DNA from: Maricaulaceae bacterium
GTDB lineage: Bacteria > Pseudomonadota > Alphaproteobacteria > Caulobacterales > Maricaulaceae
Direction of reading: 5' to 3'
DNA length: 64,000 nucleotides
Assembly (NCBI GenBank): GCA_965183855.1
Contig: CBCYMI010000028.1
Span: forward strand, 7,701 to 71,700
The notes below the pieces were generated by a model. That model was not told where the DNA came from. It made no database searches and saw only the letters and a program-made list of their open reading frames with translations. Position 1 is the stretch's first letter. Each line of letters begins with the position of its first letter. A program made the position numbers and the translations under genes. Of this stretch, positions 25,841-50,862 are shown piece after piece.

Positions 25841-26980
25841 TTAAAATCTAATACTTTTTTTAGGCAAGGCAGAATGTCGGTAGATTCGAGCAGATAATAA
25901 AATACCAAATCCAGCCATAATCGTCATCATAACACTCCCACCATAAGAAACCAGAGGCATGGGAACACCAACAACAGGAGCAAGTCCTGTAACCATCGCA
26001 ATATTAATAAATACATATAGAAAAAAACTTGCCGTAATGCCCATGCTTGCAAGTCGTGAAAATTTGTTTTTAAACGACCATGCAAGCCATCCACAACATA
26101 AAATAATCAAAACATAAAGCGATAAGAGCCCCATACTACCAATAAATCCAAATTCTTCTGCAATCATGGTAAAGATAAAATCTGTGTGTTTTTCAGGTAA
26201 AAAATCAAGATGAGATTGCGTTCCCTGCAAATAGCCTTTTCCAGACAATCCTCCAGAACCAATTGCAATTTTTGATTGTATAATATGATACCCTGAATCC
26301 AAAGGATCACTTTGTGGATTTAAAAATGTCATGATTCTCTGACGTTGATAATCATGAAGCCCAAATAAAACAAAAATTGGGATTAAAAAAGATAACAAAA
26401 TCGAGAAAATGCCAATTACGCGCCAGGAAATTCCAGAAAGAAAAAGAATAATTCCAGTGGAAAATAAAAGCAATAAAGCCGTTCCTAGATCTGGCTGTCT
26501 CAAAATTAATAAAAATGGAATTCCTGTCATAATCAAGGGAATAAACACGATTTTCAAACCATAATCTTGACCATAATCAACATCATAATAATAACGAGCC
26601 AGAGCTAAAACCAGAGTGATTTTCATAAACTCAGAAGGTTGAAGATTAAATATTCCAAGATCTAACCAACGTTGCGCTCCCATACGTTCAACACCAAATA
26701 TATCAACTACGATCAGTAATAATAACGTCATGATATAAAGTGGATAGGAAAGCCTGTACCAAATTCGTATTGGAATTAAAGCACAGATAAACATTAAAAA
26801 AAGCGCGAGTAAAAAACGAAGCAAATGATTCATTGCCCAAGGCGTCCAGGCGCCATCCGCAACAGAATACAACATGAGTACACCAATTAATGCCGTCATC
26901 ATCAGTAAAATAACCAAAGACCAGTAAATATCTAAAACTCTACTTAAAAAACTATCAGGTGTTTTTCGAAAATAAGACAT
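25841..26980 (-). CDS. rodA: Rod-shape-determining SEDS protein RodA
   Basis: 379-aa polytopic membrane protein with FtsW/RodA/SpoVE motifs (..LQPSEFMK.., ..PEKHTDFIF.., ..GVPMPLVSYGGS..). Confidence 0.85.
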   Translation of the reverse strand: MSYFRKTPDSFLSRVLDIYWSLVILLMMTALIGVLMLYSVADGAWTPWAMNHLLRFLLALFLMFICALIPIRIWYRLSYPLYIMTLLLLIVVDIFGVERMGAQRWLDLGIFNLQPSEFMKITLVLALARYYYDVDYGQDYGLKIVFIPLIMTGIPFLLILRQPDLGTALLLLFSTGIILFLSGISWRVIGIFSILLSFLIPIFVLFGLHDYQRQRIMTFLNPQSDPLDSGYHIIQSKIAIGSGGLSGKGYLQGTQSHLDFLPEKHTDFIFTMIAEEFGFIGSMGLLSLYVLIILCCGWLAWSFKNKFSRLASMGITASFFLYVFINIAMVTGLAPVVGVPMPLVSYGGSVMMTIMAGFGILLSARIYRHSALPKKSIRF

Positions 26981-29951: not shown

Positions 29952-30284
29952 GTCTGAATTCTCCCAAAATATCCAATCAAACTTGTAAAATTAAGTATAG
30001 CATACGTGATATTTTTATCAAAAAATAAAGAAAAAAGGGAAATAAAGAAAAATAAAGATACTGAAAGTAATATAATTATCACATAATATTTGATAATATC
30101 ATTAATTATACCTTGAATTATAGACGGTCTATTTTATAATTTAATTTATTTAAGTATAAAGAATTATATAGTTTAAATAGAATTTATTTTATATAGAATA
30201 ATAAATTCATTAAGAAAACTTATTAAGGTGAATTAAAAAAACAATCTTTTAATCAAAAAGCAAATTTTATATTTTATCTATTAA

Positions 30285-30585
30285 TTATTTTTTCTTTCTA
30301 AACCAGGTTTTATAGCTTTTGATTTCTTTTGTTATTCTTTTGTTATTCTTTTGTTATTCTTTTAGGATCTGAATAATCAAAAAATTTATTAAACTTTCCC
30401 TTAAGAATAATATCAAAAATTAAAAATAATAAAGGATATAAAATCAATGCTGAGATAATAACTACCTACCTATTTCCTTCCAAGCCAAATAATAAAATAT
30501 ACCCTACAGAATACACAACTGCCATATTAAAGCTATAGATAAGTGTATATTTATGGTCTTTTAGAAATTTCTTTAAATGCTTCAT
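30285..30585 (-). pseudogene. Decayed copy of the 95-aa immunity-like membrane protein
   Basis: Starts MKHLKKFLKDHKYTLIYSFNMAVVYSVGYILLFGLEGNR, then TAG (30466..30468) where intact copies have Trp (ENRW). The 3' part carries an 11-bp unit (ttgttattctt) three times in tandem. Confidence 0.75.
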
Positions 30586-30600
30586 TTCAAAAATAATACT

Positions 30601-30921
30601 TTATTTAATAAAGCCTCCTAATAAACTGGTTGTACCTGCAGCCGCAGCACCAGTTACACGCATTCCTACTGCGCCAAAACCACCTGCCATTAACCCTGCC
30701 GCAGTTCCAAGGACCGCTCCAGCAGCAACAACACCCCAATCAACGCCAGGCTTGTTGTCTGTTAATTGATTAATTAAAGCCGCTCCTGCGCCCAATGCGG
30801 TTCCAATTCCAACCATAGCAGCAAATAAAGGCAATATTCCACCTTCTACTTGATCAATCTCTATATCGGTTAATTCTCTGATGCCTGGGTTTGCAGGTAT
30901 AGTTAACGCTAAATCTGTCAT
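30601..30921 (-). CDS. Double-glycine-leader peptide precursor, core type A (78-aa Gly/Ala-rich core)
   Basis: The ATG at 30921 follows TAAGGAGAGAAAAG; the tracked ORF start at 30963 lies in the promoter. The 28-aa leader is MTDLALTIPANPGIRELTDIEIDQVEGG. The core begins ILPLFAAMVGIGTALGAGAAL... Confidence 0.8.
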   Translation of the reverse strand: MTDLALTIPANPGIRELTDIEIDQVEGGILPLFAAMVGIGTALGAGAALINQLTDNKPGVDWGVVAAGAVLGTAAGLMAGGFGAVGMRVTGAAAAGTTSLLGGFIK

Positions 30922-30935
30922 CTTTTCTCTCCTTA

Positions 30936-30963
30936 ATTCTAAACTAAAAAAATAGAGAGTCAA
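30936..30963 (-). promoter_or_regulatory. Sigma-70-like promoter of the leader-peptide gene (TTGACT-N16-TAGAAT)
   Basis: On the minus strand the -35 TTGACT is at 30963..30958 and the -10 TAGAAT at 30941..30936. It lies 15 nt upstream of the ATG and is conserved base for base in six gene copies. Confidence 0.5.
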
Positions 30964-31272: not shown

Positions 31273-33642
31273 TTATACTTTTTCTGTTGGCTTATTGTTG
31301 GGAGCTTTGGGAGGGGGGGCTGGCTCAGAGCTTTTATAGGAAAGTTTAAGCCTGGATGCTGGGCTTATTTCAAATCTGAATTCATCCTCGCGATCCTTAT
31401 CAATTAAAATACGAACACTTCCTCCTTTTTTAAGCTTTCCATATAAAATCTCGTCTGCAAGCGGTTTCTTGATTTTCTCTTGAATAATGCGAGCCATGGG
31501 ACGCGCGCCAAATTCCTTATTATAGCCAAGCTTAGCCAAAAAATGCCGAACTTCTTTTGTTAATTCAAAACTAATATCTCGATCCATTAATTGTGTTTCC
31601 AATTGGGCAATAAATTTCTCTACAATCCGTTCAATAATATCCATTGATAAATCAGAAAATTGAATAATGGCATCCAGCCTGTTTCTAAATTCAGGCGCAA
31701 ATAAACGAATAATTGCTTTTTCTTCTTCTCCTGTTTTCTTACCACGCCCAAAGCCAATTGAATTTTGAGAAGACTCTGAGGCTCCTGCATTGGTCGTCAT
31801 GATTAAAATCGTATTTCTGAAATCAACCATTTTACCATTTGAATCTGTTAATTGACCATTATCCATTACCTGAAGCAGAATATTAAAAATATCTGGATGT
31901 GCTTTTTCAATCTCATCAAATAATAAAACACAATGACGATGCTGATCAACGGCATCGGTTAACTGACCTCCCTGATCATGACCAACATAGCCAGGAGGAG
32001 CGCCAAGCATACGAGAAATGGTATGCTTTTCCATATATTCAGACATATCAAAGCGTAATAATTCAATTTGCATTAATCTGGCTAATTGTTTTGCCAATTC
32101 TGTCTTGCCAACCCCTGTAGGACCTGAGAATAAATAACAGCCAATTGGTTTTTCTTCTTCTCTTAATCCTGCTCTTGAGAGTTTAACAGCAGCGCTTAAT
32201 TCTTCTATCGCCCGATCCTGACCATAAATAACACGTTTTAAATCAGAAGGTAAATGACGTAAAAGCTGAGCGTCTGACTGACTGATATGTTTAACAGGAA
32301 CTTTTGCAATCTTGGAAACAATCGATTCAATATCTCTGGTATTAATCGTTTTTCTGCGCTTCGAGGATGGCAGTAATTTCTGAGAAGCTCCTGCTTCATC
32401 AATTAAATCAATCGCTTTGTCAGGAAGCTTTTTCTCTGGAATATATCTAACAGATAAGTCAATAGAGGATTTCAGAGAATCTTGAGTATATCTGACAGAA
32501 TGAAATTTTTCAAAATGAGATTTAAGACCTGATAAAATCTTAAGGGTTTCTTTTTTCGAAGGCTCTTTTACATCGACTTTTTGGAATCTTCTTGCCAATG
32601 CCCTGTCTTTTTCAAAATGCTGTCTGTATTCCTTATACGTTGTGGATCCTATACAGTTTAATTGACCCGTTTGAAGAATCGGCTTTAACAAGGCAGAAGC
32701 ATCCATCGCTCCCCCAGAAGTCGCGCCTGCGCCAATAACGGTATGAATCTCATCAATAAATAAAATAACATCCCGCTTGTTCTGTAAAATATTAATAATA
32801 GATTTTAACCGTTCTTCAAAATCTCCGCGATACCGTGTTCCTGCTAATAAAGCTCCCATATCAAGCGCATAAATCGTCATATTTTCAATCGCACTCGGTG
32901 CATGCTTATATACAATTAAACGGGCAAGCCCTTCTGCAATCGCGGTCTTACCAACGCCTGGATCACCTACCAAAATCGGATTATTCTTTCTTCTTCGGCA
33001 TAAAATCTGGACACATCTGTTAATCTCATCTTGCCTGCCAATTAAAGGATCAATCGCATCACACTCTGCTTTTTTATTTAAATTAACGCAATATGTTTCT
33101 AAAATCTCATTTTCTTTTGTCTGTTTTTTTACAAATTCTTCAGATTTAGAGTTTTGCTCTTCTGACATATCTACATGCTTTGAAAGATCAGACGGTTTCT
33201 TTTTATTCTTACGAACGCCATGAGAAATATAAACCGTTGCATCATACCGTGTCATATTCTGCTTGAGCAGAAAATAAACCGCATGACTTTCTCTTTCAGA
33301 AAAGAGCGCAACTAAAATATTTGCCCCCGTAACCTCATGACTACCAGAAGATTGAATATGAATAACGGCACGATTTAAAACGCGTTGAAAACTCGCCGTC
33401 GTCAGAGATTCAACATAGTCTTCAATCACCAGCATTTTTAATTCATCATCAAGATAATGTATTAAATCATTTCGTAAAATATCCATATTTACATCACAAG
33501 CTTTCATTACAGCAAGCGCATCAACATCATCTGTCAGAGCAAGAAGTAAATGCTCTAAAGTTGCATATTCATGTTGACGATCCGCTGCATAAAGCAAGGC
33601 TCTGTGAATGGTTTCTTCTAAATGTGGTGATAATGAAGACAA
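31273..33642 (-). CDS. clpA: ATP-dependent Clp protease ATP-binding subunit ClpA
   Basis: Clp N-domain, two AAA modules with Walker A GDPGVGKT and GPTGVGKT, and a GARPMARIIQ motif. 789 aa. Confidence 0.95.
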   Translation of the reverse strand: MSSLSPHLEETIHRALLYAADRQHEYATLEHLLLALTDDVDALAVMKACDVNMDILRNDLIHYLDDELKMLVIEDYVESLTTASFQRVLNRAVIHIQSSGSHEVTGANILVALFSERESHAVYFLLKQNMTRYDATVYISHGVRKNKKKPSDLSKHVDMSEEQNSKSEEFVKKQTKENEILETYCVNLNKKAECDAIDPLIGRQDEINRCVQILCRRRKNNPILVGDPGVGKTAIAEGLARLIVYKHAPSAIENMTIYALDMGALLAGTRYRGDFEERLKSIINILQNKRDVILFIDEIHTVIGAGATSGGAMDASALLKPILQTGQLNCIGSTTYKEYRQHFEKDRALARRFQKVDVKEPSKKETLKILSGLKSHFEKFHSVRYTQDSLKSSIDLSVRYIPEKKLPDKAIDLIDEAGASQKLLPSSKRRKTINTRDIESIVSKIAKVPVKHISQSDAQLLRHLPSDLKRVIYGQDRAIEELSAAVKLSRAGLREEEKPIGCYLFSGPTGVGKTELAKQLARLMQIELLRFDMSEYMEKHTISRMLGAPPGYVGHDQGGQLTDAVDQHRHCVLLFDEIEKAHPDIFNILLQVMDNGQLTDSNGKMVDFRNTILIMTTNAGASESSQNSIGFGRGKKTGEEEKAIIRLFAPEFRNRLDAIIQFSDLSMDIIERIVEKFIAQLETQLMDRDISFELTKEVRHFLAKLGYNKEFGARPMARIIQEKIKKPLADEILYGKLKKGGSVRILIDKDREDEFRFEISPASRLKLSYKSSEPAPPPKAPNNKPTEKV

Positions 33643-39682: not shown

Positions 39683-41023
39683 CTTCTTAAGGCGCACTCA
39701 ACAGAAATCTTAAGCTCTTAAGCTTAATCTGGGATCTTAAAGAGCCTTAAGAAAATCCAGTCCGAGACTGGCGACCGAGCGCGCATTCGTGTGACTTTTT
39801 TTGGAACACTTAGCGTATAAGAAAAAGCGCAGAGCTTAATGCTTGGTAATTAGAGAGCCTTAAGAAAATCCAGTCCGAGACTGGCGACCGCGCGCGCGGT
39901 CGTGTGACTTTTTTTGGAACACTTAGCGTATAAGAAAAAGCGCAAAGCTTAACGCTTGGTAATTAGAGAGCCTTAAGAAAATCCAGTCCGAGACTGGCGA
40001 CCGAGCGCGCGATCGTGTGACTTTTTTTGGAACGCTTAGCGTATAAGAAAAAGCGCAAAGCTTAACGCTTGGTAATTAGAGAGCCAAACACACATTCGTG
40101 TGACTTTTTTTGGAACACTTAGCGTATAAGAAAAAGCGCAAAGCTTAACGCTTGGTAATTAGAGAGCCAAACACACATTCGTGTGACTTTTTTTGGAACA
40201 CTTAGCGTATAAGAAAAAGCGCAAAGCTTAACGCTTGGTAATTAGAGAGCCAAACACACATTCGTGTGACTTTTTTTGGAACACTTAGCGTATAAGAAAA
40301 AGCGCAAAGCTTAATGCTTAGTAATTAGAGAGCCAAACACACATTCGTGTGACTTTTTTTGGAACACTTAGCGTATAAGAAAAAGCGCAGAGCTTAACGC
40401 TTGGTAATTAGAGAGCCTTAAGAAAATCCAGTCCGAGACTGGCGACCGAGCGCGCATTCGTGTGACTTTTTTTGGAACACTTAGCGTATAAGAAAAAGCG
40501 CAAAGCTTAACGCTTGGTAATTAGAGAGCCAAACACACATTCGTGTGACTTTTTTTGGAACACTTAGCGTATAAGAAAAAGCGCAAAGCTTAATGCTTAG
40601 TAATTAGAGAGCCAAACACACATTCGTGTGACTTTTTTTGGAACACTTAGCGTATAAGAAAAAGCGCAGAGCTTAATGCTTGGTAATTAGAGAGCCAAAC
40701 ACACATTCGTGTGACTTTTTTTGGAACACTTAGCGTATAAGAAAAAGCGCAAAGCTTAACGCTTAGTAATTAGAGAGCCAAACACACATTCGTGTGACTT
40801 TTTTTGGAACACTTAGCGTATAAGAAAAAGCGCAGAGCTTAACGCTTGGTAATTAGAGAGCCTTAAGAAAATCCAGTCCGAGACTGGCGACCGAGCGCGC
40901 ATTCGTGTGACTTTTTTTGGAACACTTAGCGTATAAGAAAAAGCGCAAAGCTTAATGCTTGGTAATTAGAGAGCCTTAAGAAAACCAATCCTTCGTCTGC
41001 ACACCTTTGTGTGCCTTTTGGCT
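39669..41023. repeat. Long tandem REP array with 83-bp short units and ~115-bp long units (about 14 units)
   Basis: The short unit is caaacacacattcgtgtgactttttttggaacacttagcgtataagaaaaagcgca(a/g)agcttaa(c/t)gctt(g/a)gtaattagagagc (83 bp, e.g. 40085 to 40168). Long units add ttaagaaaatccagtccgagactggcgaccgagcgcgc. Confidence 0.95.
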
Positions 41024-41061: not shown

Positions 41062-41098
41062 AAGAAAAAAAGGAATGGGAGTTTATTCCTTTTTTTCC
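41062..41098 (-). terminator. Intrinsic terminator after the immunity-like gene
   Basis: Stem aaggaat (41070..41076) pairs with attcctt (41085..41091) between A and T runs, directly downstream of the 41102 stop on the minus strand. Confidence 0.55.
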
Positions 41099-41101
41099 AG
41101 A

Positions 41102-41389
41102 TTATTTTTTCTTTCTAAACCAGGTTTTATAGCTTTTGAGCTCTTTTACTATTCTTTTTCTCTTTCTTTTAGGATCTGAATAATCAAGAAATTCATTAAG
41201 CTTTCCTTTAAGAATAATATCAAAAATTAAAAATGATAAAGGATAACCAATAAAAATAAAAGTAACAACTTCCCACCTATTTTCTCCCAGACCAAAAAAA
41301 ATATATCCTACATAATACACAACTGCCATAATAAAGCTACAGATTAGTGTATATTTATGGTTTTTTAGAAATTTCTTTAAATGCTTCAT
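41102..41389 (-). CDS. Immunity-like two-TM membrane protein (95 aa) paired with the type A peptide
   Basis: Starts 15 nt after the type A stop. Two hydrophobic helices and a K/R-rich tail (..KRKRKRIVKELKSYKTWFRKKK). The same gene follows three other type A copies. Confidence 0.6.
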   Translation of the reverse strand: MKHLKKFLKNHKYTLICSFIMAVVYYVGYIFFGLGENRWEVVTFIFIGYPLSFLIFDIILKGKLNEFLDYSDPKRKRKRIVKELKSYKTWFRKKK

Positions 41390-41404: not shown

Positions 41405-41725
41405 TTATTTAATAAAGCCTCCTAATAAACTGGTTGTACCTGCAGCCGCAGCACCAGTTACACGCATTCCTACTGCGCCAAAACCACCTGCCATTAACCC
41501 TGCCGCAGTTCCAAGGACCGCTCCAGCAGCAACAACACCCCAATCAACGCCAGGCTTGTTGTCTGTTAATTGATTAATTAAAGCCGCTCCTGCGCCCAAT
41601 GCGGTTCCAATTCCAACCATAGCAGCAAATAAAGGCAATATTCCACCTTCTACCTGATCAATCTCTATATCGGTTAATTCTCTGATGCCTGGGTTTGCAG
41701 GTATAGTTAACGCTAAATCTATCAT
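41405..41725 (-). CDS. Double-glycine-leader peptide precursor, core type A
   Basis: The ATG at 41725 sits behind AAGGAGAGAAAAG. The leader is MIDLALTIPANPGIRELTDIEIDQVEGG. The core is identical to the 30601 and 44096 copies. Confidence 0.8.
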   Translation of the reverse strand: MIDLALTIPANPGIRELTDIEIDQVEGGILPLFAAMVGIGTALGAGAALINQLTDNKPGVDWGVVAAGAVLGTAAGLMAGGFGAVGMRVTGAAAAGTTSLLGGFIK

Positions 41726-41740
41726 CTTTTCTCTCCTTAA

Positions 41741-41769
41741 ATTATACATCAAGTTAAAAATAGAATCAA
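41741..41769 (-). promoter_or_regulatory. Variant promoter TTGATT-N17-TATAAT
   Basis: On the minus strand the -35 is at 41769..41764 and the -10 at 41746..41741. It is created by a ~28-bp insertion relative to the standard upstream region. The same variant occurs at 46566..46594. Confidence 0.5.
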
Positions 41770-41847
41770 ATTTCAGCAAAAAAATAGAGAGTCAATAAAA
41801 CAAGGTAAAACTGGATGAAAATCACATAAAAAAGAATGTATCTAAGT

Positions 41848-42576
41848 TTATATTTTACATATAAATAGTTTTGAGTTTTTTTCTAATTGAGATACATCAA
41901 ACTTTTGATCCATAATTTGATGGAAAGATAATTTCTCTGACTCCATTAAATATTTAATCAGCATACGGAATTTAAAATATTTATAAGATAGAGACTGATT
42001 TATTTTACCAGAACAAAAAAGTTCTTTTCCAAAAACTTCATCAAAAGAGCTTTCATTTGCAATATAATCTGCATAACCTTCACGTTTCCAGACAGGCATA
42101 AAACGATACTTAAAAAATCCTATTTCTTTTTCTGTCAAAACATGAACCATTTCATGAGCTAAAACACTATTTAAAGAACGAGTATTAAACAGTTTCCCAT
42201 TTCTATAAACCTTGTTTTTAGATACATTCGAGCGAGTTACAATTATTCTTTGAAATATAGGAAAACTAACTGCAAAAGACCTATATGATTTCATAACTAG
42301 AGAAGCATATTCTCCATATCCAGAGGTTAAATAAACAGAAAAATAATATTTCCTATCTTGTTCTTTTTGAAAAAGTTCTGAAGCTTCAACTAAATTTATG
42401 CTATGTATTGCCAATCGTTCAAGATTTTTTTTTGAAACCATCTTATGATGATAAAAATCTATTCCAGAAAAACTTGTTTTAGAATAAGAAAGAATAGGCC
42501 AAAAATACCAATAAGCGAGATAACTGACAATCGCGATTACAAATCCATATGAAAAATATTTCTTGATCACCAGCAT
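41848..42576 (-). CDS. Membrane-anchored HExxH protein (peptidase-MA-like)
   Basis: N-terminal TM (FSYGFVIAIVSYLAYWYFWPIL), the motif VLAHEMVHVL and a downstream WKREGYADY (resembling Peptidase_MA_2 HExxH...EG.A). It lies between type B and type A peptide genes. Its product is identical to that of 46673..47401. Confidence 0.6.
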   Translation of the reverse strand: MLVIKKYFSYGFVIAIVSYLAYWYFWPILSYSKTSFSGIDFYHHKMVSKKNLERLAIHSINLVEASELFQKEQDRKYYFSVYLTSGYGEYASLVMKSYRSFAVSFPIFQRIIVTRSNVSKNKVYRNGKLFNTRSLNSVLAHEMVHVLTEKEIGFFKYRFMPVWKREGYADYIANESSFDEVFGKELFCSGKINQSLSYKYFKFRMLIKYLMESEKLSFHQIMDQKFDVSQLEKNSKLFICKI

Positions 42577-42642
42577 CTCTCTTCTTTGGTATTTATTCCA
42601 GAATGAAAATATTCGACTGTTGATTGATATAATAATTTATAT

Positions 42643-42798
42643 TTAATAAGCATCTACAGGAGTCAGCGCGATTGCTATAATAGCTATAATAGCAATCGTT
42701 GTAACGACCGCAAGTCCACCTTCTACTTGATCAATTTCAAATGCTGTTAATTCTCTGATGCCTGGGTTTGCAGGTATAGTTAACGCTAAATCTGTCAT
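42643..42798 (-). CDS. Double-glycine-leader peptide precursor, core type B (23-aa hydrophobic core)
   Basis: The ATG at 42798 follows the RBS. The leader is MTDLALTIPANPGIRELTAFEIDQVEGG and the core is LAVVTTIAIIAIIAIALTPVDAY. Confidence 0.7.
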   Translation of the reverse strand: MTDLALTIPANPGIRELTAFEIDQVEGGLAVVTTIAIIAIIAIALTPVDAY

Positions 42799-42812
42799 CT
42801 TTTCTCTCCTTA

Positions 42813-42840
42813 ATTCTAAACTAAAAAAATAGAGAGTCAA
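42813..42840 (-). promoter_or_regulatory. TTGACT-N16-TAGAAT promoter copy
   Basis: Same sequence and same offset from the ATG as at 30936..30963. Confidence 0.5.
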
Positions 42841-43127
42841 TAAAATAAGGTAAAACTAGATGAAAACCGTATAAAAATAGAGATCATTAACTCATAGCGT
42901 TAATATAGTCTATAAATAGAGTATATAAATCTTTATTATAGACCTTCTTAAAACACTTTGTGTATAGAATAAGGCTCTTAAATCTAAACTTGCTAGTTAG
43001 AGAAGCTTAAGAAATCACGCGACCGCGTGTAAGGTAAAATTAGACGAAAACCGTATGGAAATAGAGATCATTAACTCATAGCGTTAATATAGTCTATAAA
43101 TAGAGTGTATAAACCTTTATTATAGCT
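42841..43127. repeat. Two tandem copies of the upstream module separated by a REP unit
   Basis: The module taaggtaaaa.tagá-like start (taaggtaaaactagatgaaaaccgtat..atagagatcattaactcatagcgttaatatagtctataaatagagt.tataaa.ctttattatag) occurs at ~42847 and ~43030. Confidence 0.85.
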
Positions 43128-43714
43128 CTTCTTAAAAGCACTTAGCATATAAAATAAGGTTCTTAAGTTTAATCTGGGTAATTAAAGAGTCTTAAGAAAA
43201 CCCAGTCCGAGACTGGCGAACGCACACACATTCGTGTGACTTTTTTTGGAACGCTTAGCGTATAAGAAAAAGCGCAAAGCTTAATGCTTAGTAATTAGAG
43301 AGCCAAACACACATTCGTGTGACTTTTTTTGGAACACTTAGCGTATAAGAAAAAGCGCAGAGCTTAACGCTTGGTAATTAGAGAGCCTTAAGAAAATCCA
43401 GTCCGAGACTGGCGACCGAGCGCGCATTCGTGTGACTTTTTTTGGAACACTTAGCGTATAAGAAAAAGCGCAAAGCTTAACGCTTGGTAATTAGAGAGCC
43501 AAACACACATTCGTGTGACTTTTTTTGGAACACTTAGCGTATAAGAAAAAGCGCAAAGCTTAATGCTTAGTAATTAGAGAGCCAAACACACATTCGTGTG
43601 ACTTTTTTTGGAACACTTAGCGTATAAGAAAAAGCGCAGAGCTTAATGCTTGGTAATTAGAGAGCCTTAAGAAAACCAATCCTTCGTCTGCACACCTTTG
43701 TGTGCCTTTTGGCT
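43128..43714. repeat. REP array (about six units of 83/115 bp)
   Basis: Same unit as the 39669..41023 array and the same terminal segment ...aaaaccaatccttcgtctgcacacctttgtgtgccttttggct. Confidence 0.9.
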
Positions 43715-44458: not shown

Positions 44459-44860
44459 TAAAATAAGGTAAAACTAGATGAAAACCGTATAAAAATAGAG
44501 ATCATTAACTCATAGCGTTAATATAGTCTATAAATAGAGTGTATAAACCTTTATTATAGCTCTTCTTAAAATACTTTGTGTATAGAATAAGCAGTTAGGT
44601 TTAATCTGGGTAATTAAAGAGCCTTAAGAAAATCCAGTCCGAGACTGGCGACCGCGTGTAAGGTAAAATTAGACGAAAACCGTATAAAAATAGAGATCAT
44701 TAACTCATAGCGTTAATATAGTCTATAAATAGAGTATATAAACCTTTATTATAGACCTTCTTAAAACACTTTGTGTATAAAATAAGGTTCTTAAGTTTAA
44801 TCTGGGTAATTAAAGAGTCTAAATAAAGTCAGCCCTTCGGCTGTGGTCGCGTGGTCTTGA
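44459..44860. repeat. Two upstream-module copies interleaved with REP units, ending in a cap hairpin
   Basis: Modules at ~44465 and ~44655. The cap aaagtcagcccttcggctg lies at 44826..44845, just before the hydrolase stop. Confidence 0.85.
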
Positions 44861-46273
44861 TTAAAGTTTGGGTTCCTTCCAGTTGCCTTCCCTGATCTTA
44901 TTAAGAAAATCTTCTATCATCTGCATTGCTTGCCAGGAAGCATCTCCATTCGCCATAAGACACGCTTTATAAGAAACATATTGCTTTGGCTTTGCACAAC
45001 CATTGGAAAACCAACCCGTTCCTATAATATCATGTTCCGCATGCTTAAAAATCTTCATATAACGGGAAGGATATTCATCACAATTTGCCTGTTTACATAT
45101 TATTCTGGCACCTAATTCTGTATTTCCATATTCATCTTTACCAGAACCAAACACTAATAAAGGGCTTCGAATCTGATCCGAAGGCAGCAATACTTTCTTT
45201 AATGCTTCATCTGAGATATGCTTTAAAGCATATTCATAGGCTTGTCTTTGAGATTTATATAAATAATGAAAAGGAAAAAAACCTCCTTTCATTGAACTTA
45301 GATAAGGAAGCTCTTTTCCTTTTAACGCCCAGTTATATGCTGTAAATAAGCAAAAAGGTCCTTGACTTCCATCTGTAAAAACACCTGCGCCACTCATTAA
45401 AATCATGCCTGCAAGAGGATGTTGATTTTGAGATGCTGTTAAAACAGAAGCCTCTACACCTTTAGAAACACCAAAAAAAATAACTTCATCTAATTCATAC
45501 TTCTTAATAAACCAATCTACAGCATGAACTAAATTCTCTATCGGGATATGATCAAGACAACTCCCATCCTTACGGTATTTATACATAAAAACAGGAAACC
45601 CTCGTGCGGCAAGACGAAAAAGCATGGGTGCAGGAAAGGCATTACCAGAACCAGGAAAATAAATAATTCCTCTTTTCTTTCGAGCTTTGCGCTCTGTTTT
45701 AAAAACCCCGTTTTCTCTTTGCGTAATTAAAAATCCATGATAAGGCGTTTCTAAAAAAATGGTTTTAAAAAAATCACCATTATGAACCACTATCTTCTTA
45801 AAGAAAAGAAGCTGATCTTTTTGATCTGTAACAAAAATAAGATATGCATTCCTAATATGTTTCTTCAAATTCATGATTCTTGTTTGTTCAACCATTTCAA
45901 GAATATAATTTGGAACAGAACCCTGTTTTAATTTATATTGATTATAAAATAATCCAGCAGGATTAACCCCTTGATAAGAACCTGATAAAGGCGCTTGTTG
46001 GCTTAAATCAACTATTCCCTTATCTGGTTTAAAAACTGCGTTTGACACTCCAAGAGTACGCTTATACCTTCCAAAAGAACGCTTATATAATCCAAGAAAA
46101 ACCACTCTGATCGTAATCTGATCCGTCTTTAAACCTTCTATTCTAATGGGAATAGCCTGACCCATATAGATCTTTTCAGGAACTTCAAATTTAATATCAG
46201 CAAAAGCGGATATGCTAAATAAAGATAAAAAAACAAAACAATAGTTTTTAATAAATCTAATTAACATATCCAT
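44861..46273 (-). CDS. Secreted alpha/beta hydrolase (BAAT/acyl-CoA thioesterase-like C-terminal domain)
   Basis: Signal peptide (..FLSLFSISAFA), a nucleophile elbow GVSKG and a downstream ..DEYGN..H.. region. The fold assignment is from memory of BAAT_C/dienelactone-hydrolase-like proteins. It starts 44 nt downstream of the type C peptide gene. Confidence 0.6.
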   Translation of the reverse strand: MDMLIRFIKNYCFVFLSLFSISAFADIKFEVPEKIYMGQAIPIRIEGLKTDQITIRVVFLGLYKRSFGRYKRTLGVSNAVFKPDKGIVDLSQQAPLSGSYQGVNPAGLFYNQYKLKQGSVPNYILEMVEQTRIMNLKKHIRNAYLIFVTDQKDQLLFFKKIVVHNGDFFKTIFLETPYHGFLITQRENGVFKTERKARKKRGIIYFPGSGNAFPAPMLFRLAARGFPVFMYKYRKDGSCLDHIPIENLVHAVDWFIKKYELDEVIFFGVSKGVEASVLTASQNQHPLAGMILMSGAGVFTDGSQGPFCLFTAYNWALKGKELPYLSSMKGGFFPFHYLYKSQRQAYEYALKHISDEALKKVLLPSDQIRSPLLVFGSGKDEYGNTELGARIICKQANCDEYPSRYMKIFKHAEHDIIGTGWFSNGCAKPKQYVSYKACLMANGDASWQAMQMIEDFLNKIREGNWKEPKL

Positions 46274-46316: not shown

Positions 46317-46550
46317 TTAATTCGTTACCTCTACTTCACCACCAGCTTCACATTCAGTGCCTGTTTTAGTACTGGTACATTTAGCTGTTGCTTTAAATTT
46401 CCACTTTGCTCCACAACCACTTAATAAACCACCAATAATCACAATACCTGCTATAATTGGCAATATTCCACCTTCTACCTGATCAATCTCTATATCGGTT
46501 AATTCTCTGATGCCTGGGTTTGCAGGTATAGTTAACGCTAAATCTGTCAT
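46317..46550 (-). CDS. Double-glycine-leader peptide precursor, core type C (49 aa, TM helix plus Cys/Lys/Thr-rich tail)
   Basis: Leader identical to the standard one. The core is ILPIIAGIVIIGGLLSGCGAKWKFKATAKCTSTKTGTECEAGGEVEVTN, with three Cys. Confidence 0.75.
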   Translation of the reverse strand: MTDLALTIPANPGIRELTDIEIDQVEGGILPIIAGIVIIGGLLSGCGAKWKFKATAKCTSTKTGTECEAGGEVEVTN

Positions 46551-46672: not shown

Positions 46673-47401
46673 TTATATTTTACATATAAATAGTTTTGAG
46701 TTTTTTTCTAATTGAGATACATCAAACTTTTGATCCATAATTTGATGGAAAGATAATTTCTCTGACTCCATTAAATATTTAATCAGCATACGGAATTTAA
46801 AATATTTATAAGATAGAGACTGATTTATTTTACCAGAACAAAAAAGTTCTTTTCCAAAAACTTCATCAAAAGAGCTTTCATTTGCAATATAATCTGCATA
46901 ACCTTCACGTTTCCAGACAGGCATAAAACGATACTTAAAAAATCCTATTTCTTTTTCTGTCAAAACATGAACCATTTCATGAGCTAAAACACTATTTAAA
47001 GAACGAGTATTAAACAGTTTCCCATTTCTATAAACCTTGTTTTTAGATACATTCGAGCGAGTTACAATTATTCTTTGAAATATAGGAAAACTAACTGCAA
47101 AAGACCTATATGATTTCATAACTAGAGAAGCATATTCTCCATATCCAGAGGTTAAATAAACAGAAAAATAATATTTCCTATCTTGTTCTTTTTGAAAAAG
47201 TTCTGAAGCTTCAACTAAATTTATGCTATGTATTGCCAATCGTTCAAGATTTTTTTTTGAAACCATCTTATGATGATAAAAATCTATTCCAGAAAAACTT
47301 GTTTTAGAATAAGAAAGAATAGGCCAAAAATACCAATAAGCGAGATAACTGACAATCGCGATTACAAATCCATATGAAAAATATTTCTTGATCACCAGCA
47401 T
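46673..47401 (-). CDS. Membrane-anchored HExxH protein (peptidase-MA-like), second copy
   Basis: The 242-aa product is identical to that of 41848..42576. Confidence 0.6.
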   Translation of the reverse strand: MLVIKKYFSYGFVIAIVSYLAYWYFWPILSYSKTSFSGIDFYHHKMVSKKNLERLAIHSINLVEASELFQKEQDRKYYFSVYLTSGYGEYASLVMKSYRSFAVSFPIFQRIIVTRSNVSKNKVYRNGKLFNTRSLNSVLAHEMVHVLTEKEIGFFKYRFMPVWKREGYADYIANESSFDEVFGKELFCSGKINQSLSYKYFKFRMLIKYLMESEKLSFHQIMDQKFDVSQLEKNSKLFICKI

Positions 47402-47467: not shown

Positions 47468-47623
47468 TTAATAAGCATCTACAGGAGTCAGCGCGATTGC
47501 TATAATAGCTATAATAGCAATCGTTGTAACGACCGCAAGTCCACCTTCTACCTGATCAATCTCTATATCGGTTAATTCTCTGATGCCTGGGTTTGCAGGT
47601 GTAGTTAACGCTAAATCTGTCAT
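47468..47623 (-). CDS. Double-glycine-leader peptide precursor, core type B (not in the supplied ORF track)
   Basis: Hand translation gives MTDLALTTPANPGIRELTDIEIDQVEGGLAVVTTIAIIAIIAIALTPVDAY*. The ATG is at 47623..47621 behind TAAGGAGATGAGAAG and the stop at 47470..47468. Confidence 0.7.
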   Translation of the reverse strand: MTDLALTTPANPGIRELTDIEIDQVEGGLAVVTTIAIIAIIAIALTPVDAY

Positions 47624-47638
47624 CTTCTCATCTCCTTA

Positions 47639-47666
47639 ATTCTAAACTAAAAAAATAGAGAGTCAA
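47639..47666 (-). promoter_or_regulatory. TTGACT-N16-TAGAAT promoter copy
   Basis: attcta at 47639..47644 and agtcaa at 47661..47666 on the plus strand. Confidence 0.5.
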
Positions 47667-48239: not shown

Positions 48240-48476
48240 ATGGAAGTGGGTATATTCGAAGCAAAAACATATTTATCCTCCTTGTTGGAAAGAGTAAAAA
48301 AAGGAGAAAGCATTGTGATTAAAAAAAGAGGAAAAGCGATTGTATGTCTTGTTCCAATTCAGAAAATATACTCTTTTAATCTTGATCAAAAAAGGCAAGC
48401 CCTTTTTCACTCGCGTAAAACCATGAAACTAAATCATATGAAGTGGAAGGAATTACGTGATAAAGGTAGAAAATAA
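48240..48476 (+). CDS. Type II antitoxin (Phd/YefM-like)
   Basis: The N-terminus MEVGIFEAKTYLSSLLERVKKGESIVIKKRGKAIV.LVP is typical of Phd/YefM-type antitoxins. It is followed by a PIN-toxin remnant. Confidence 0.65.
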   Translation: MEVGIFEAKTYLSSLLERVKKGESIVIKKRGKAIVCLVPIQKIYSFNLDQKRQALFHSRKTMKLNHMKWKELRDKGRK

Positions 48477-48571
48477 AACCGTAAAAAATCTCTTTTTGGG
48501 GGCAACATATAAAAAGTCTTTTTATATATTAACATTCTCTTCAAATCATACAGATCGAAAGTAATAATGTT

Positions 48572-48990
48572 ATGACGGTTGAACAAAAACCAGTTATACT
48601 AGATTGCTCTATTAGCGTTGCCTGGTTTTTTGAAGATGAAGCGTGTTCTAAAACGGATTCTTTTTTAAAAAATATTCATTCTTATACGGTTATCATTCCA
48701 AATTTATGGCAATTGGAAATATCTTAATTCAGGCAGAAAAACATAATCAAATTACATTCGAACATGTCAGAATATGTCTAGATCTTATTAGAGATTTACC
48801 GACCCTTACAGATATTGAATCAAGTGATCGAGCTCTACGTGATATCTTTCAGCTCGCTCGTCATTTTAAATTAACCAGCTATGATGCCGTCTATCTTGAT
48901 CTTGCACTCAGAAAAAATGCACAAATGGCAACAAAAGATAAACAACTTATCAAGGCTGCCAAAGCAAATAAAATACCTCTTTTGTTCTAA
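48572..48990 (+). pseudogene. vapC: PIN-domain toxin (VapC-like), frameshifted
   Basis: 48572..48727 encodes MTVEQKPVILDCSISVAWFFEDE...LWQLEIS*. 48706..48990, in another frame, continues ..GNILIQAEKHNQIT...SYDAVYLDLA... The frames switch near 48712..48722. Confidence 0.6.
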
Positions 48991-49017: not shown

Positions 49018-50832
49018 TTAGGTATTTTTTGTTAGACAATACCGTAAAATACGAGAAGCAATTGGAGCGGCAGAAGAAGCTCCTCCTCCGCCATGCTCAA
49101 CCACAACAGAAACAACATATTGAGGCTTGTCATAAGGCGCATAACCAACAAACAAGGCATGATCTCTATTTCTCCATTCTCTATCTTTATTCTTGATAAT
49201 TCCTGTAAGACGTTCTTCTTTTGTAATGGATTTTACCTGCGCGGTTCCTGTTTTTCCAGCCCAGGGAATACCAGGCGTTATGCCAAGCCCCCTATATCGA
49301 TAAGCTGTTCCTCTAGGCGTTTCACAAACGGCTCGCATTGCCTGTTGAACAGGCTTTAAAGCCTGTTGTGAAATCTTCAAGGGAGAAAAAGGTTTTTGTT
49401 GATTTTCCATAAATAATCTTGGAAGAACTTTCCTTCCTGTTGCCAGACGAGCGGTCATAACGGCAAGCTCTAATGGCGTTAGAGCAAGATAGCCTTGTCC
49501 AATCGCAACATTGAGCGTATCTCCTCTATGCCAGCCTAGCCGATAACGATCCTGTTTCCATTTAGAGCCAATCATTGGAGCCGATTGAATTCCTTCTATT
49601 GGTAATTTATAATCCTGGCCAATTCCAAATTTTCTAGCCATTTGCATAATTGGTTTTATTCCCAATTTTAAAGCCAGTTCATAATAATATATATCGCATG
49701 ATTGTTGAATGCTTGATTGAAGATTAATAATTCCATGTCCTTGTTTCTTCCAACAATGAAATTTACGATTACCAAAACTCAAACTTCCCTTACATAACAC
49801 CTTGTCTTTTAACGTAATAAGACCAGATTCCAACCCTGCAAGAGCAACCATCATTTTAAATGTAGAGGCGGGTGGATAAAGACCTGATAATGCCTTGTTA
49901 AACAAGGGATTTGCTTCATCTTTCAATAAGGTCTGATAGGCATTTTGTGATACTCCACGAACAAATAAATTAGGATCAAAACCAGGTGTCGAAAGAGAAA
50001 CCAGAATATCTCCTTGATCTGGTTTTAAAACAATAATTGCACCACTTTTTTTTGTTTTAAACTCCTGAGAGGCAAATCTCTGAAGATCACGATCAAGCGT
50101 AATTTGAATATCTTTTCCTCTTTTAGGCTTTACATAATCATCTTTCCATTCTCGAATGGTTCTCCCATATGCATTCACTTCAACCTTTGAATTCCCTGGC
50201 TTGCCCTGTAAGGGTTTTTCAAAGCTTTTCTCTAATCCTTGACGACCAACATACATGCCTGGTTGATGCAATAAAGGATCTTTCTCAAGATCAGATTCAG
50301 AAGGTCGTGCAACAAATCCTATAATATGACAAAATTCCTGATCATAAGGATAAGATCTGATTTCACCAATATCTGGTTGTATGCCTGAGATTTCTGGCAT
50401 TTTTAAATTTACAATTGCAAACTGTTCCCAGCTTAAATGTTCCTTTAATAAAACAGGGACAAAAGAAGGTTGTTTTTTTAACTGTGACCAAATACGATCA
50501 ATTTGCGTTTCTGTAAGTGCTAGCAAAGATTTCAAACTATTAATGGAATGCTGAAGTTGAATTCCTTTTTCGTGCTGAATTAACACTCTGAAATTTCGTT
50601 TATTTTGGGCAAGAATATTTGAATGGCGATCTAAAATCTTTCCTCTCGAAGGAGTTAAGACTCGTAAATTAAACTGATTATCATCTGAAAGCAGTTTATA
50701 TTTGTGCTGTTTGGTTAATTGAAGATCAATTAACCTGCTTGTTAAAGATAAAAACCCGCCGGCTCCCAATAATCCAATCATGACCATTCGACGATCAAAT
50801 TGTTTCTTAGATGCATCTTCATGATTATTCAT
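49018..50832 (-). CDS. mrdA: Penicillin-binding protein 2 (elongasome transpeptidase)
   Basis: N-terminal anchor, SxxK (ASTFK) and KTG (GKTGTAQV) motifs. Sits downstream of mreC-mreD. Confidence 0.9.
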   Translation of the reverse strand: MNNHEDASKKQFDRRMVMIGLLGAGGFLSLTSRLIDLQLTKQHKYKLLSDDNQFNLRVLTPSRGKILDRHSNILAQNKRNFRVLIQHEKGIQLQHSINSLKSLLALTETQIDRIWSQLKKQPSFVPVLLKEHLSWEQFAIVNLKMPEISGIQPDIGEIRSYPYDQEFCHIIGFVARPSESDLEKDPLLHQPGMYVGRQGLEKSFEKPLQGKPGNSKVEVNAYGRTIREWKDDYVKPKRGKDIQITLDRDLQRFASQEFKTKKSGAIIVLKPDQGDILVSLSTPGFDPNLFVRGVSQNAYQTLLKDEANPLFNKALSGLYPPASTFKMMVALAGLESGLITLKDKVLCKGSLSFGNRKFHCWKKQGHGIINLQSSIQQSCDIYYYELALKLGIKPIMQMARKFGIGQDYKLPIEGIQSAPMIGSKWKQDRYRLGWHRGDTLNVAIGQGYLALTPLELAVMTARLATGRKVLPRLFMENQQKPFSPLKISQQALKPVQQAMRAVCETPRGTAYRYRGLGITPGIPWAGKTGTAQVKSITKEERLTGIIKNKDREWRNRDHALFVGYAPYDKPQYVVSVVVEHGGGGASSAAPIASRILRYCLTKNT

Positions 50833-50862
50833 GTTGTTATTTAACCTTACCTTTTTTAAACT

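Follow-up and report, generated by a model that had tools for sequence, protein, structure and literature searches.

A 64-kilobase (kb) stretch of DNA from a divergent alphaproteobacterium of low guanine-plus-cytosine (GC) content (about 35%; contig CBCYMI010000028.1), referred to in its full length of 64,000 nucleotides (nt) as the window, encodes the same 242-amino-acid (aa) protein twice, each time directly behind the gene of a short, extremely hydrophobic peptide with a double-glycine leader, here called type B. The protein is very probably a real gluzincin peptidase facing the periplasm and is predicted from its modelled structure to be a zinc endopeptidase of thermolysin-like gluzincin type that is anchored in the inner membrane. 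Proteolytic self-immunity of the producer against type B is a plausible role for it, although we hold this at somewhat less than an even chance. The original prediction, made from the sequence letters, had described two 242-aa proteins at 41848..42576 and 46673..47401 with a single N-terminal transmembrane segment, the motif AHEMVHVL and a later WKREGYADY; both open reading frames (ORFs) were recovered there on the minus strand, and segment and motifs were all located in the sequence or in the AlphaFold model. The features on which the argument rests are the following:

41848..42576, minus strand: predicted gluzincin-fold zinc metallopeptidase gene, copy 1 (242-aa ORF; assigned by model, fold matches and invariant H/E/H/E)
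46673..47401, minus strand: predicted gluzincin-fold zinc metallopeptidase gene, copy 2, 100% nucleotide-identical to copy 1
42643..42798, minus strand: type B precursor peptide, copy 1, 66 nt 5' of the peptidase gene, with a weak TIGR03949 match
47468..47623, minus strand: type B precursor peptide, copy 2, core identical to copy 1, leader differing at three residues
41634..43223: first copy of the duplicated block, aligned with the second over 1593 nt at 98.2% identity
46459..48049: duplicated block, copy 2, the counterpart of 41634..43223

The two peptidase genes show 0 nucleotide differences over 729 nt, and their translations are identical. They lie within the duplicated block of about 1.59 kb, which runs from the regulatory region over type B and the peptidase gene to the promoter and leader of the peptide that comes next, and which stops 2-3 codons inside the core of that downstream peptide (type A behind copy 1, type C behind copy 2). 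All 28 differences between the blocks fall into the type B leader region, upstream thereof, or into the A/C leader, and the stretch from 42727 to 41721, comprising the type B core and the peptidase gene, is identical in both. Core and peptidase gene are duplicated or homogenised as one unit.

Profile and structure-prediction searches, which had been proposed as a check of the original prediction, returned a gluzincin fold with an invariant HExxH and a nearly invariant E166. In the 242-aa protein HEMVH occupies residues 141-145 and WKREGYADY residues 163-171, the spacing from H145 to E166 is 20 residues, and E166 is the third zinc ligand by motif. The AlphaFold model, built on 78 sequences, reached a predicted local distance difference test (pLDDT) of 94.9 and a predicted template modelling score (pTM) of 0.91; it displays an N-terminal hydrophobic helix as predicted membrane anchor (residues 2-30) and a beta-sheet subdomain, with HExxH on the helix 135-152 and the Glu on the helix 162-173. 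Foldseek searches against the PDB were headed by M9 collagenase peptidase domains (expectation value (E) 7.5e-5, TM-score 0.55), followed by M1 aminopeptidases, leukotriene A4 (LTA4) hydrolase and aureolysin (M4); the matches at E<1e-3 were all M9 collagenase peptidase domains, with TM-scores of 0.47-0.56, which denote fold-level similarity. When the family profile was compared with the PDB, AHExxH...WxxEG was aligned to the zinc site of aminopeptidase N, E166 taking the place of the NEG glutamate, in a sub-threshold match (E 0.27) that covers the 46-residue zinc motif only. HExxH on a helix, a Glu on a downstream helix and a thermolysin-like two-subdomain fold, the marks of clan MA(E) gluzincins, are thus all present. 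Invariance at H141, E142, H145 and G167 extends over all 234 full-length members of the family; the count for W163 and likewise for E166 is 233, for Y200 229 and for R133 227, so that the HExxH motifs are not a product of chance; metal and catalytic residues are intact also in the peptide-linked members.

A word-indexed protein search with the 242-aa protein as single query found two relatives only. With a limit of E<=1e-3 the exhaustive profile search yielded at least 924 cluster representatives (50% identity), of which 512 reached E<=1e-10; almost all measure 230-260 aa. Members of the family are known from Bacteroidota, Acidobacteriota, Cloacimonadota, Cyanobacteria, Bdellovibrio-like bacteria and Proteobacteria. 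Wherever members are named in any source they are hypothetical proteins, and the listed members carry no precomputed Pfam domains. On the 242-aa protein itself nothing above threshold was returned by Pfam (SprT-like at E 0.14) or NCBIfam, and nothing at all by PADLOC. Several assignments were considered and rejected: flagellinolysin (NF033876; 22.3 bits against a cut-off of 205 bits, HExxH region only), M1 aminopeptidase (PF01433; no G.MEN motif and no Pfam match for the window protein), Abi/CPBP (PF02517; no match, and a single N-terminal helix) and a C39 leader peptidase (no C39 Pfam match, and the fold is that of a zincin). The resemblance to Peptidase_MA_2 (PF13485) originally suggested holds at the level of the MA clan; as a family it was rejected, for the Pfam model misses the window protein at E<=1 and touches 2 of 78 relatives weakly (best 3.2e-3). 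Among the same 78 relatives weak matches were also obtained to BSP (13), DUF1570 (7) and, in some, Peptidase_M1. The 242-aa family is therefore best classed as a single-domain family of its own within clan MA(E), new and uncurated, which belongs neither to Peptidase_MA_2 nor to M1.

Of 204 members, 184 have lysine and arginine counts around the anchor that favour an N-in, C-out orientation. Cys188 and a C-terminal Cys (C188 and C240 in the window protein) occur together in 32 members, singly in 8 and not at all in 194 (Fisher p 1e-30), and this co-occurrence suggests a disulfide pattern and with it an extracytoplasmic domain. Charge distribution and cysteine pair together place the catalytic domain, in all probability, in the periplasm.

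The type B precursor comprises 51 aa and consists in copy 1 of the leader MTDLALTIPANPGIRELTAFEIDQVEGG and the core LAVVTTIAIIAIIAIALTPVDAY; across both copies the leader reads MTDLALT(I/T)PANPGIRELT(AF/DI)EIDQVEGG. The type B leader is hydrophobic at positions -4, -7, -12 and -15, has Glu at -8 and ends in Gly-Gly; it thereby follows the leader rule for substrates of peptidase-containing (C39) ATP-binding cassette (ABC) transporters. The core of 23 aa, with a grand average of hydropathy (GRAVY) of 2.15, is a near-pure hydrophobic helix with the tail TPVDAY; the mature peptide would resemble a transmembrane segment of about 20 residues plus a brief polar tail. The reported adjacency of type B and peptidase gene stood, while the distance had to be corrected from 67 to 66 nt.

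Whether this adjacency extends beyond the window was assessed in a context survey of 80 loci from species-representative genomes, 80 metagenome loci and individual look-ups, the genome scan for family loci having used a 14-sequence alignment. A scan for double-glycine-leader motifs within 5 kb gave convincing peptides only in the window and in two low-GC lineages. These two hold the closest relatives, P0003/P0270 (39% identity) and P0004 (40%), which in a neighbour-joining tree fall into the cysteine-pair clade of the window protein. The P0003/P0270 lineage (loci L002 and L174) is known from two NCBI assemblies and from metagenome contigs, and its relevant features are:

L002, 9776-9934: type-B-like peptide
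L002, 10001-10704: peptidase
L174, 635-1339: peptidase

In this lineage the frame NTQTLRWSDINVNEGSDIQTLSSTEVEDVSGG/WGWVVAAAVIFYFASTSPAY-stop lies 63 nt 5' of the peptidase gene on the same strand. Its leader belongs to that genome's own leader family (cf. L002 14920-15093) and is unrelated to the window leader. Its core resembles that of type B in having about 20 residues, nearly all hydrophobic, and an S/T-x-P-..-A-Y end (TSPAY vs TPVDAY); in six-frame translations of 1.6 Mb of fetched loci this core pattern was encountered only directly upstream of these peptidase genes. Since the same arrangement recurs in a second lineage with an unrelated leader, type-B-like peptide and peptidase are best read as a conserved two-gene module of two lineages, the shared feature of which resides in the core and not in the leader.

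The survey of homologue neighbourhoods, likewise put forward in the original prediction, thus recovered the pair in the P0003/P0270 lineage and left the family otherwise without a universal neighbour: across 160 loci of many phyla no conserved neighbour was found, and a bacteriocin link of the whole family was rejected, as 84 loci gave only lineage-specific synteny with unrelated genes. No type-B-like peptides were detected upstream of high-GC and other relatives (L001, L177, L087, L094-L097). In the other of the two low-GC lineages (L085), the region from 0.4 to 2 kb downstream of P0004 holds double-glycine-leader peptides and a truncated HlyD gene. Exporter genes near the related peptide clusters look degraded; L002 15797-17215 holds an intact HlyD-type gene followed by a 64-aa C39 fragment only, and at L085 10614-11021 HlyD is truncated at 135 aa. 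A 274-aa lipoprotein alpha/beta hydrolase is always located behind the L002/L174 peptidase; a hydrolase as conserved partner was rejected, because the downstream hydrolases of window and L002 match at BLASTP E 0.21, i.e., at fold level only. In a further lineage P0011 (L091 8001-8714) has a 4-nt overlap with the pseudouridine synthase gene ahead of it and stands just before cobW and cobN within a cobalamin cluster, a setting that may point to a metal-related or an unrelated role there.

Eight double-glycine-leader peptide genes with one leader family are dispersed over the window (four of type A, two of type B and one each of types C and D). A small membrane ORF right behind a peptide gene is the classical immunity arrangement, and such ORFs follow within 7-15 nt 3' of three of the four type A genes and of type D; type B is followed only by the 242-aa peptidase gene. 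Gram-negative double-glycine peptides are passed through a transporter, a membrane-fusion protein and an outer-membrane channel directly to the outside and act from the periplasm on re-entry (PMC12219008). Given this direct route, an inner-membrane enzyme of the periplasm would stand where immunity proteins act and off the export path. We therefore favour self-immunity for an enzyme that is predicted to face the periplasm from the inner membrane and is encoded behind type B as the immunity ORFs are behind types A and D. A peptidase-containing ABC transporter, its gene lying elsewhere in the genome, would cleave the type B precursor behind Gly-Gly and export it, and mature type B reaching the producer's periplasm or inner membrane would be cleaved by the anchored peptidase, by which the producer would be protected. 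The adjacency typical of the immunity class is present in that the peptidase gene lies 66 nt 3' of type B in both copies, on the same strand, and at 63 nt in the L002 lineage. Topology, co-transcription, type B as substrate and immunity rather than maturation are what we infer from sequences, gene order and the predicted structure. Leader removal, immunity and core processing had all been named as roles in the original prediction; leader removal is now disfavoured, and the specific tie to type B has been strengthened by the pair in the second lineage.

Several observations weigh against self-immunity. With 242 aa and a full enzyme domain the protein exceeds the verified microcin immunity proteins, which have at most 216 aa (PMC12219008). 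Gene order alone fits immunity and maturation alike, and both the toxicity of type B and its cleavage by the peptidase are predictions. The peptide-peptidase pair is found in two lineages only, and in the second of them the module may be decaying: the L002/L174 peptide has ATA or ATT in the position of its paralogue's ATG start, and the peptidase is frameshifted in one assembly (P0003; ORFs of 201 aa and 32 aa) and intact with 234 aa in another (P0270). L085 carries another membrane ORF, of 53 aa, 56 nt upstream of the peptidase and without the local leader. Finally, more than 150 other members stand among housekeeping genes of no relation to peptides of this kind (IscS/NifU, a cobalamin operon, fatty-acid desaturase, ribosomal proteins L21/L27), so that the ancestral function is not one connected with bacteriocins.

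Alternatively, the enzyme might mature the peptide, trimming the type B core at its T-x-P-..-A-Y tail or at N-terminal residues after leader removal, and possibly the A and C peptides too, to give the active form. LicP is a second-step protease in the two-step processing of a lanthipeptide; CylA likewise acts as second-step protease (PMC3709268), and the CAAX protease SagE has been proposed to cleave a leader (PMC9298176). Maturation would account equally for the linkage and the conserved pairing, and the C-terminal tail shared by the cores is a possible recognition or cleavage site. However, direct export to the outside (PMC12219008) would let an inner-membrane enzyme miss the peptide on its way out, a core of 20-23 residues leaves little to trim, and the peptidase occupies the slot that immunity genes hold behind types A and D, so that we consider maturation unlikely. 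If, instead, the enzyme were a general envelope housekeeping peptidase that merely came to lie within a recombination-prone peptide island, the missing common neighbour across the 160 loci, the cobalamin, desaturase and ribosomal-protein contexts and the wealth of repeats and duplications in the window would find an explanation. The tight order of peptide, about 65 nt and peptidase nevertheless recurs at 39% protein identity with an unrelated leader, and core and peptidase were duplicated as one unit, which makes a chance companion a quite improbable reading. Double-glycine inducing peptides are usually cationic and amphiphilic, a property that counts against type B, a near-pure hydrophobic helix with a GRAVY of 2.15, as a secreted hydrophobic signal that controls the cassettes and is processed or destroyed by the peptidase. 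Signal turnover of this kind could draw on the core being far shorter than the other cores and free of their glycine-rich character, on the upstream regulatory repeats shared by the cassettes (repeat family D3), on the histidine kinase in L002 and the response regulator in L085 that adjoin related clusters, and on the CAAX protease SilX, which acts on a quorum-sensing peptide (PMC9298176). As no kinase or regulator gene is adjacent in the window and the regulation of the cassettes by type B is itself a supposition drawn from the sequence, the chances of a signalling role appear slim.

The peptidase might also replace an absent C39 domain in leader removal. The statement that no C39 peptidase is visible in the window was borne out, for neither a C39 peptidase nor an ABC exporter was found in the 64 kb, where the ORFs of at least 600 aa are AsmA, ClpA and PBP2 only and Pfam scans agree; a tblastn search of the window with a C39 fragment gave nothing, the CvaB query being unreliable, so that the absence rests on ORF sizes and Pfam. 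This absence, which covers 64 kb of the genome only, and the truncated look of exporter genes by related clusters would speak for such a replacement. The predicted periplasmic position of the catalytic domain is, however, the wrong compartment, the type B leader keeps every feature of a C39-transporter substrate, the related clusters hold HlyD and C39 remnants, and leaders differ completely between lineages with cores alike; leader removal is for these reasons very unlikely, the more so as no such peptidase stands beside type A or type D in other parts of the window. A non-catalytic binder that kept the fold and bound the peptide in the membrane by its transmembrane helix would have a parallel in the CAAX protein Abx1, which works independently of its catalytic motifs (PMC9298176), yet with metal and catalytic residues intact and invariant, peptide-linked members included, there is very little to be said for it. 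Proteolytic self-immunity remains the role we prefer for the peptidase behind type B.

The immediate surroundings of the two copies bear on transcription and on the origin of the duplicated block, and comprise these elements:

42813..42840, minus strand: promoter-like TTGACT-16-TAGAAT ahead of type B copy 1 (consensus match only); equivalent for copy 2 at 47639-47666
41405..41725, minus strand: type A glycine-rich double-glycine-leader peptide, 3' of peptidase copy 1, with its own promoter-like site at 41741-41769
41102..41389, minus strand: membrane ORF of 95 aa with two helices, placed behind type A where an immunity gene would be, followed by a terminator-like hairpin at 41063-41098
46317..46550, minus strand: type C double-glycine-leader peptide, 3' of peptidase copy 2, core starting with ILPIIAGIVIIGGLLSGC
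44861..46273, minus strand: 470-aa alpha/beta hydrolase behind type C (BAAT N-terminal region and hydrolase fold), followed by a terminator-like hairpin at 44830-44843

As had been stated, the peptidase sits between type B and a type A (copy 1) or type C (copy 2) gene. A purine-rich ribosome-binding stretch directly precedes its start. No terminator-like hairpins were found between the type B, peptidase and A/C genes, the first ones occurring after the 95-aa ORF and after the hydrolase, and a shared transcription unit is for this reason possible; types A and C are also preceded by their own promoter-like TTGATT-17-TATAAT (consensus match). Type B and peptidase are probably co-transcribed, with read-through into the next pair possible. 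Types A and C share leader, promoter and the first residues ILP and have unrelated cores, as follows from the duplicated block ending just inside the next core. This chimerism of leader and core looks like cassette shuffling via recombination at the leader-core junction. The type C core begins with a lipobox-like ILPIIAGIVIIGGLLSG/C and contains three more Cys, and the hydrolase behind it, which takes the immunity position, has a signal-peptide-like N-terminal stretch; this couple would be a second case of an enzyme, and not a small membrane protein, behind a peptide gene.

The remainder of the window is characterised by further peptide cassettes, repeats and genes of a Gram-negative envelope (AsmA, ExbB/ExbD-like, MreC-MreD-PBP2). 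The window ClpA has best matches of at most 66% identity (Rhizomicrobium, Oceanicaulis). The cassettes all have common repeated upstream regulatory sequences, the D3 family mentioned above, and every one of them is flanked by tandem repeat arrays (83-nt and 113-nt units, 95-98% identical, up to 9 copies) without a match in Rfam. Their units each contain terminator-like hairpins and yield spurious 31-aa ORFs (MRFFLYAK...). The features concerned are:

30601-30963: type A peptide gene number four, remote from the others and closely following clpA (31273-33642)
39737-40975: tandem repeat array
43177-43666: tandem repeat array
53007-53170: tandem repeat array
54349-55093: tandem repeat array
58174-58509: tandem repeat array

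Behind the type A gene at 30601-30963 no intact immunity-like ORF was found, 30082-30600 being without an ORF of at least 40 aa. The type D peptide (57530-57838) has the variant leader end IDFVVGG, and the 126-aa membrane ORF behind it (57142-57522) consists of two 168-nt internal repeats that are 91-93% identical. CPBP/CAAX proteins are the classical protease-like immunity family of Gram-positive bacteriocin loci, and a 311-aa Rce1-like CPBP/CAAX protein is encoded at 55103-56038 among the peptide cassettes (PF02517, E 1.7e-14). The interval from the peptide island to the PBP2 gene holds, at 48240-48990, a 78-aa ORF of antitoxin-like character and behind it the overlapping ORFs 48572-48727 and 48706-48990, which, with translations judged by eye, look like a split, possibly frameshifted toxin gene of PIN/VapC type. 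The cell-shape operon mre-PBP2-rodA is normally compact; here mreC-mreD-PBP2 (49018-52649) lies about 22 kb from rodA (FtsW/RodA family, 25841-26980), and the mre genes have peptide cassettes to either side, which suggests insertions into the operon. The 489-aa ORF at the window edge (14-1483) gave no Pfam match at E<=1e-3.

It is doubtful, though worth serious consideration, that the pair represents an undescribed Gram-negative toxin-immunity (or pro-peptide-activator) module in which immunity is conferred by proteolysis. If this were true, it would provide the first functional handle on a widespread family of orphan peptidases, with more than 900 sequence clusters in Bacteroidota, Acidobacteriota, Cloacimonadota, Cyanobacteria and Proteobacteria, whose general role could lie in ridding the inner membrane's outer face of hydrophobic peptides. 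A soluble-domain zinc peptidase with a tiny, synthesisable candidate substrate would moreover offer a tractable test of proteolytic immunity, and the window displays recombination shuffling peptide cassettes at the leader-core boundary in a divergent alphaproteobacterium. For CylI and for Gram-positive Abi/CAAX proteins, proteolytic immunity has to our knowledge not gone beyond a suggestion.

Compared with known systems, the claim that no described bacteriocin system uses such a partner was too strong (PMC3709268; PMC9298176), even if in the literature searched no partner of this gluzincin family, nor any such partner in a Gram-negative microcin-like locus, was found. CylI, which belongs to the Enterococcus faecalis cytolysin, is a membrane protein that carries a possible zinc-metalloprotease motif. 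It is both required and sufficient for the immunity of the producer, and has been proposed to cleave subunits as they enter the producer's membrane, the mechanism being unproven (PMC3709268). The two settings share an operon of a secreted, membrane-active toxin whose ABC transporter cuts after a double-glycine-type site (PMC3709268), and they differ in that CylI belongs to a Gram-positive lanthipeptide system and is described as a transmembrane protein. No sequence relation to CylI was detected, in that none of the tblastn matches of the window protein among 72,556 plasmids came from Enterococcus, which is a weak test. Abi/CAAX proteins (CPBP, PF02517), putative metalloproteases, have been tied to bacteriocin immunity (PlnI-type), leader cleavage (SagE) and signal processing (SilX) (PMC9298176). 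Like the window protein they are protease-like membrane proteins beside double-glycine-leader peptides, in class II bacteriocin loci, whereas their fold and motifs are others and they are multi-pass intramembrane proteins, the window protein having one anchor and a soluble gluzincin domain.

With M1, M9 and M4 gluzincins it has in common the HExxH active-site helix, the Glu of the next helix, the N-terminal beta-sheet subdomain and, as in M1, the W-x-x-E-G context; it differs in that sequence identity is only 10-14% and the TM-score about 0.5, in the lack of GxMEN and of an accessory domain, and in a spacing of 20 instead of 18. BSP (PF04450), DUF1570 (PF07607) and Peptidase_MA_2 (PF13485) are likewise small single-domain families of the MA clan with HExxH and then a Glu helix, but none of them is matched by the window protein at E<=1. 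Immunity proteins of class II microcins and bacteriocins are encoded next to their cognate double-glycine peptide, reside in the inner membrane and are small, with at most 216 aa (PMC12219008). They are non-enzymatic, in contrast to a protein of 242 aa with one anchor helix and a complete peptidase domain. The nisin resistance protein NSR is a membrane-associated, extracytoplasmic serine protease of family S41 that cuts the C-terminal tail of nisin. It resembles the proposed system as an extracytoplasmic protease that inactivates a membrane-active peptide, and it differs in conferring resistance on a non-producer, with no paired peptide gene.

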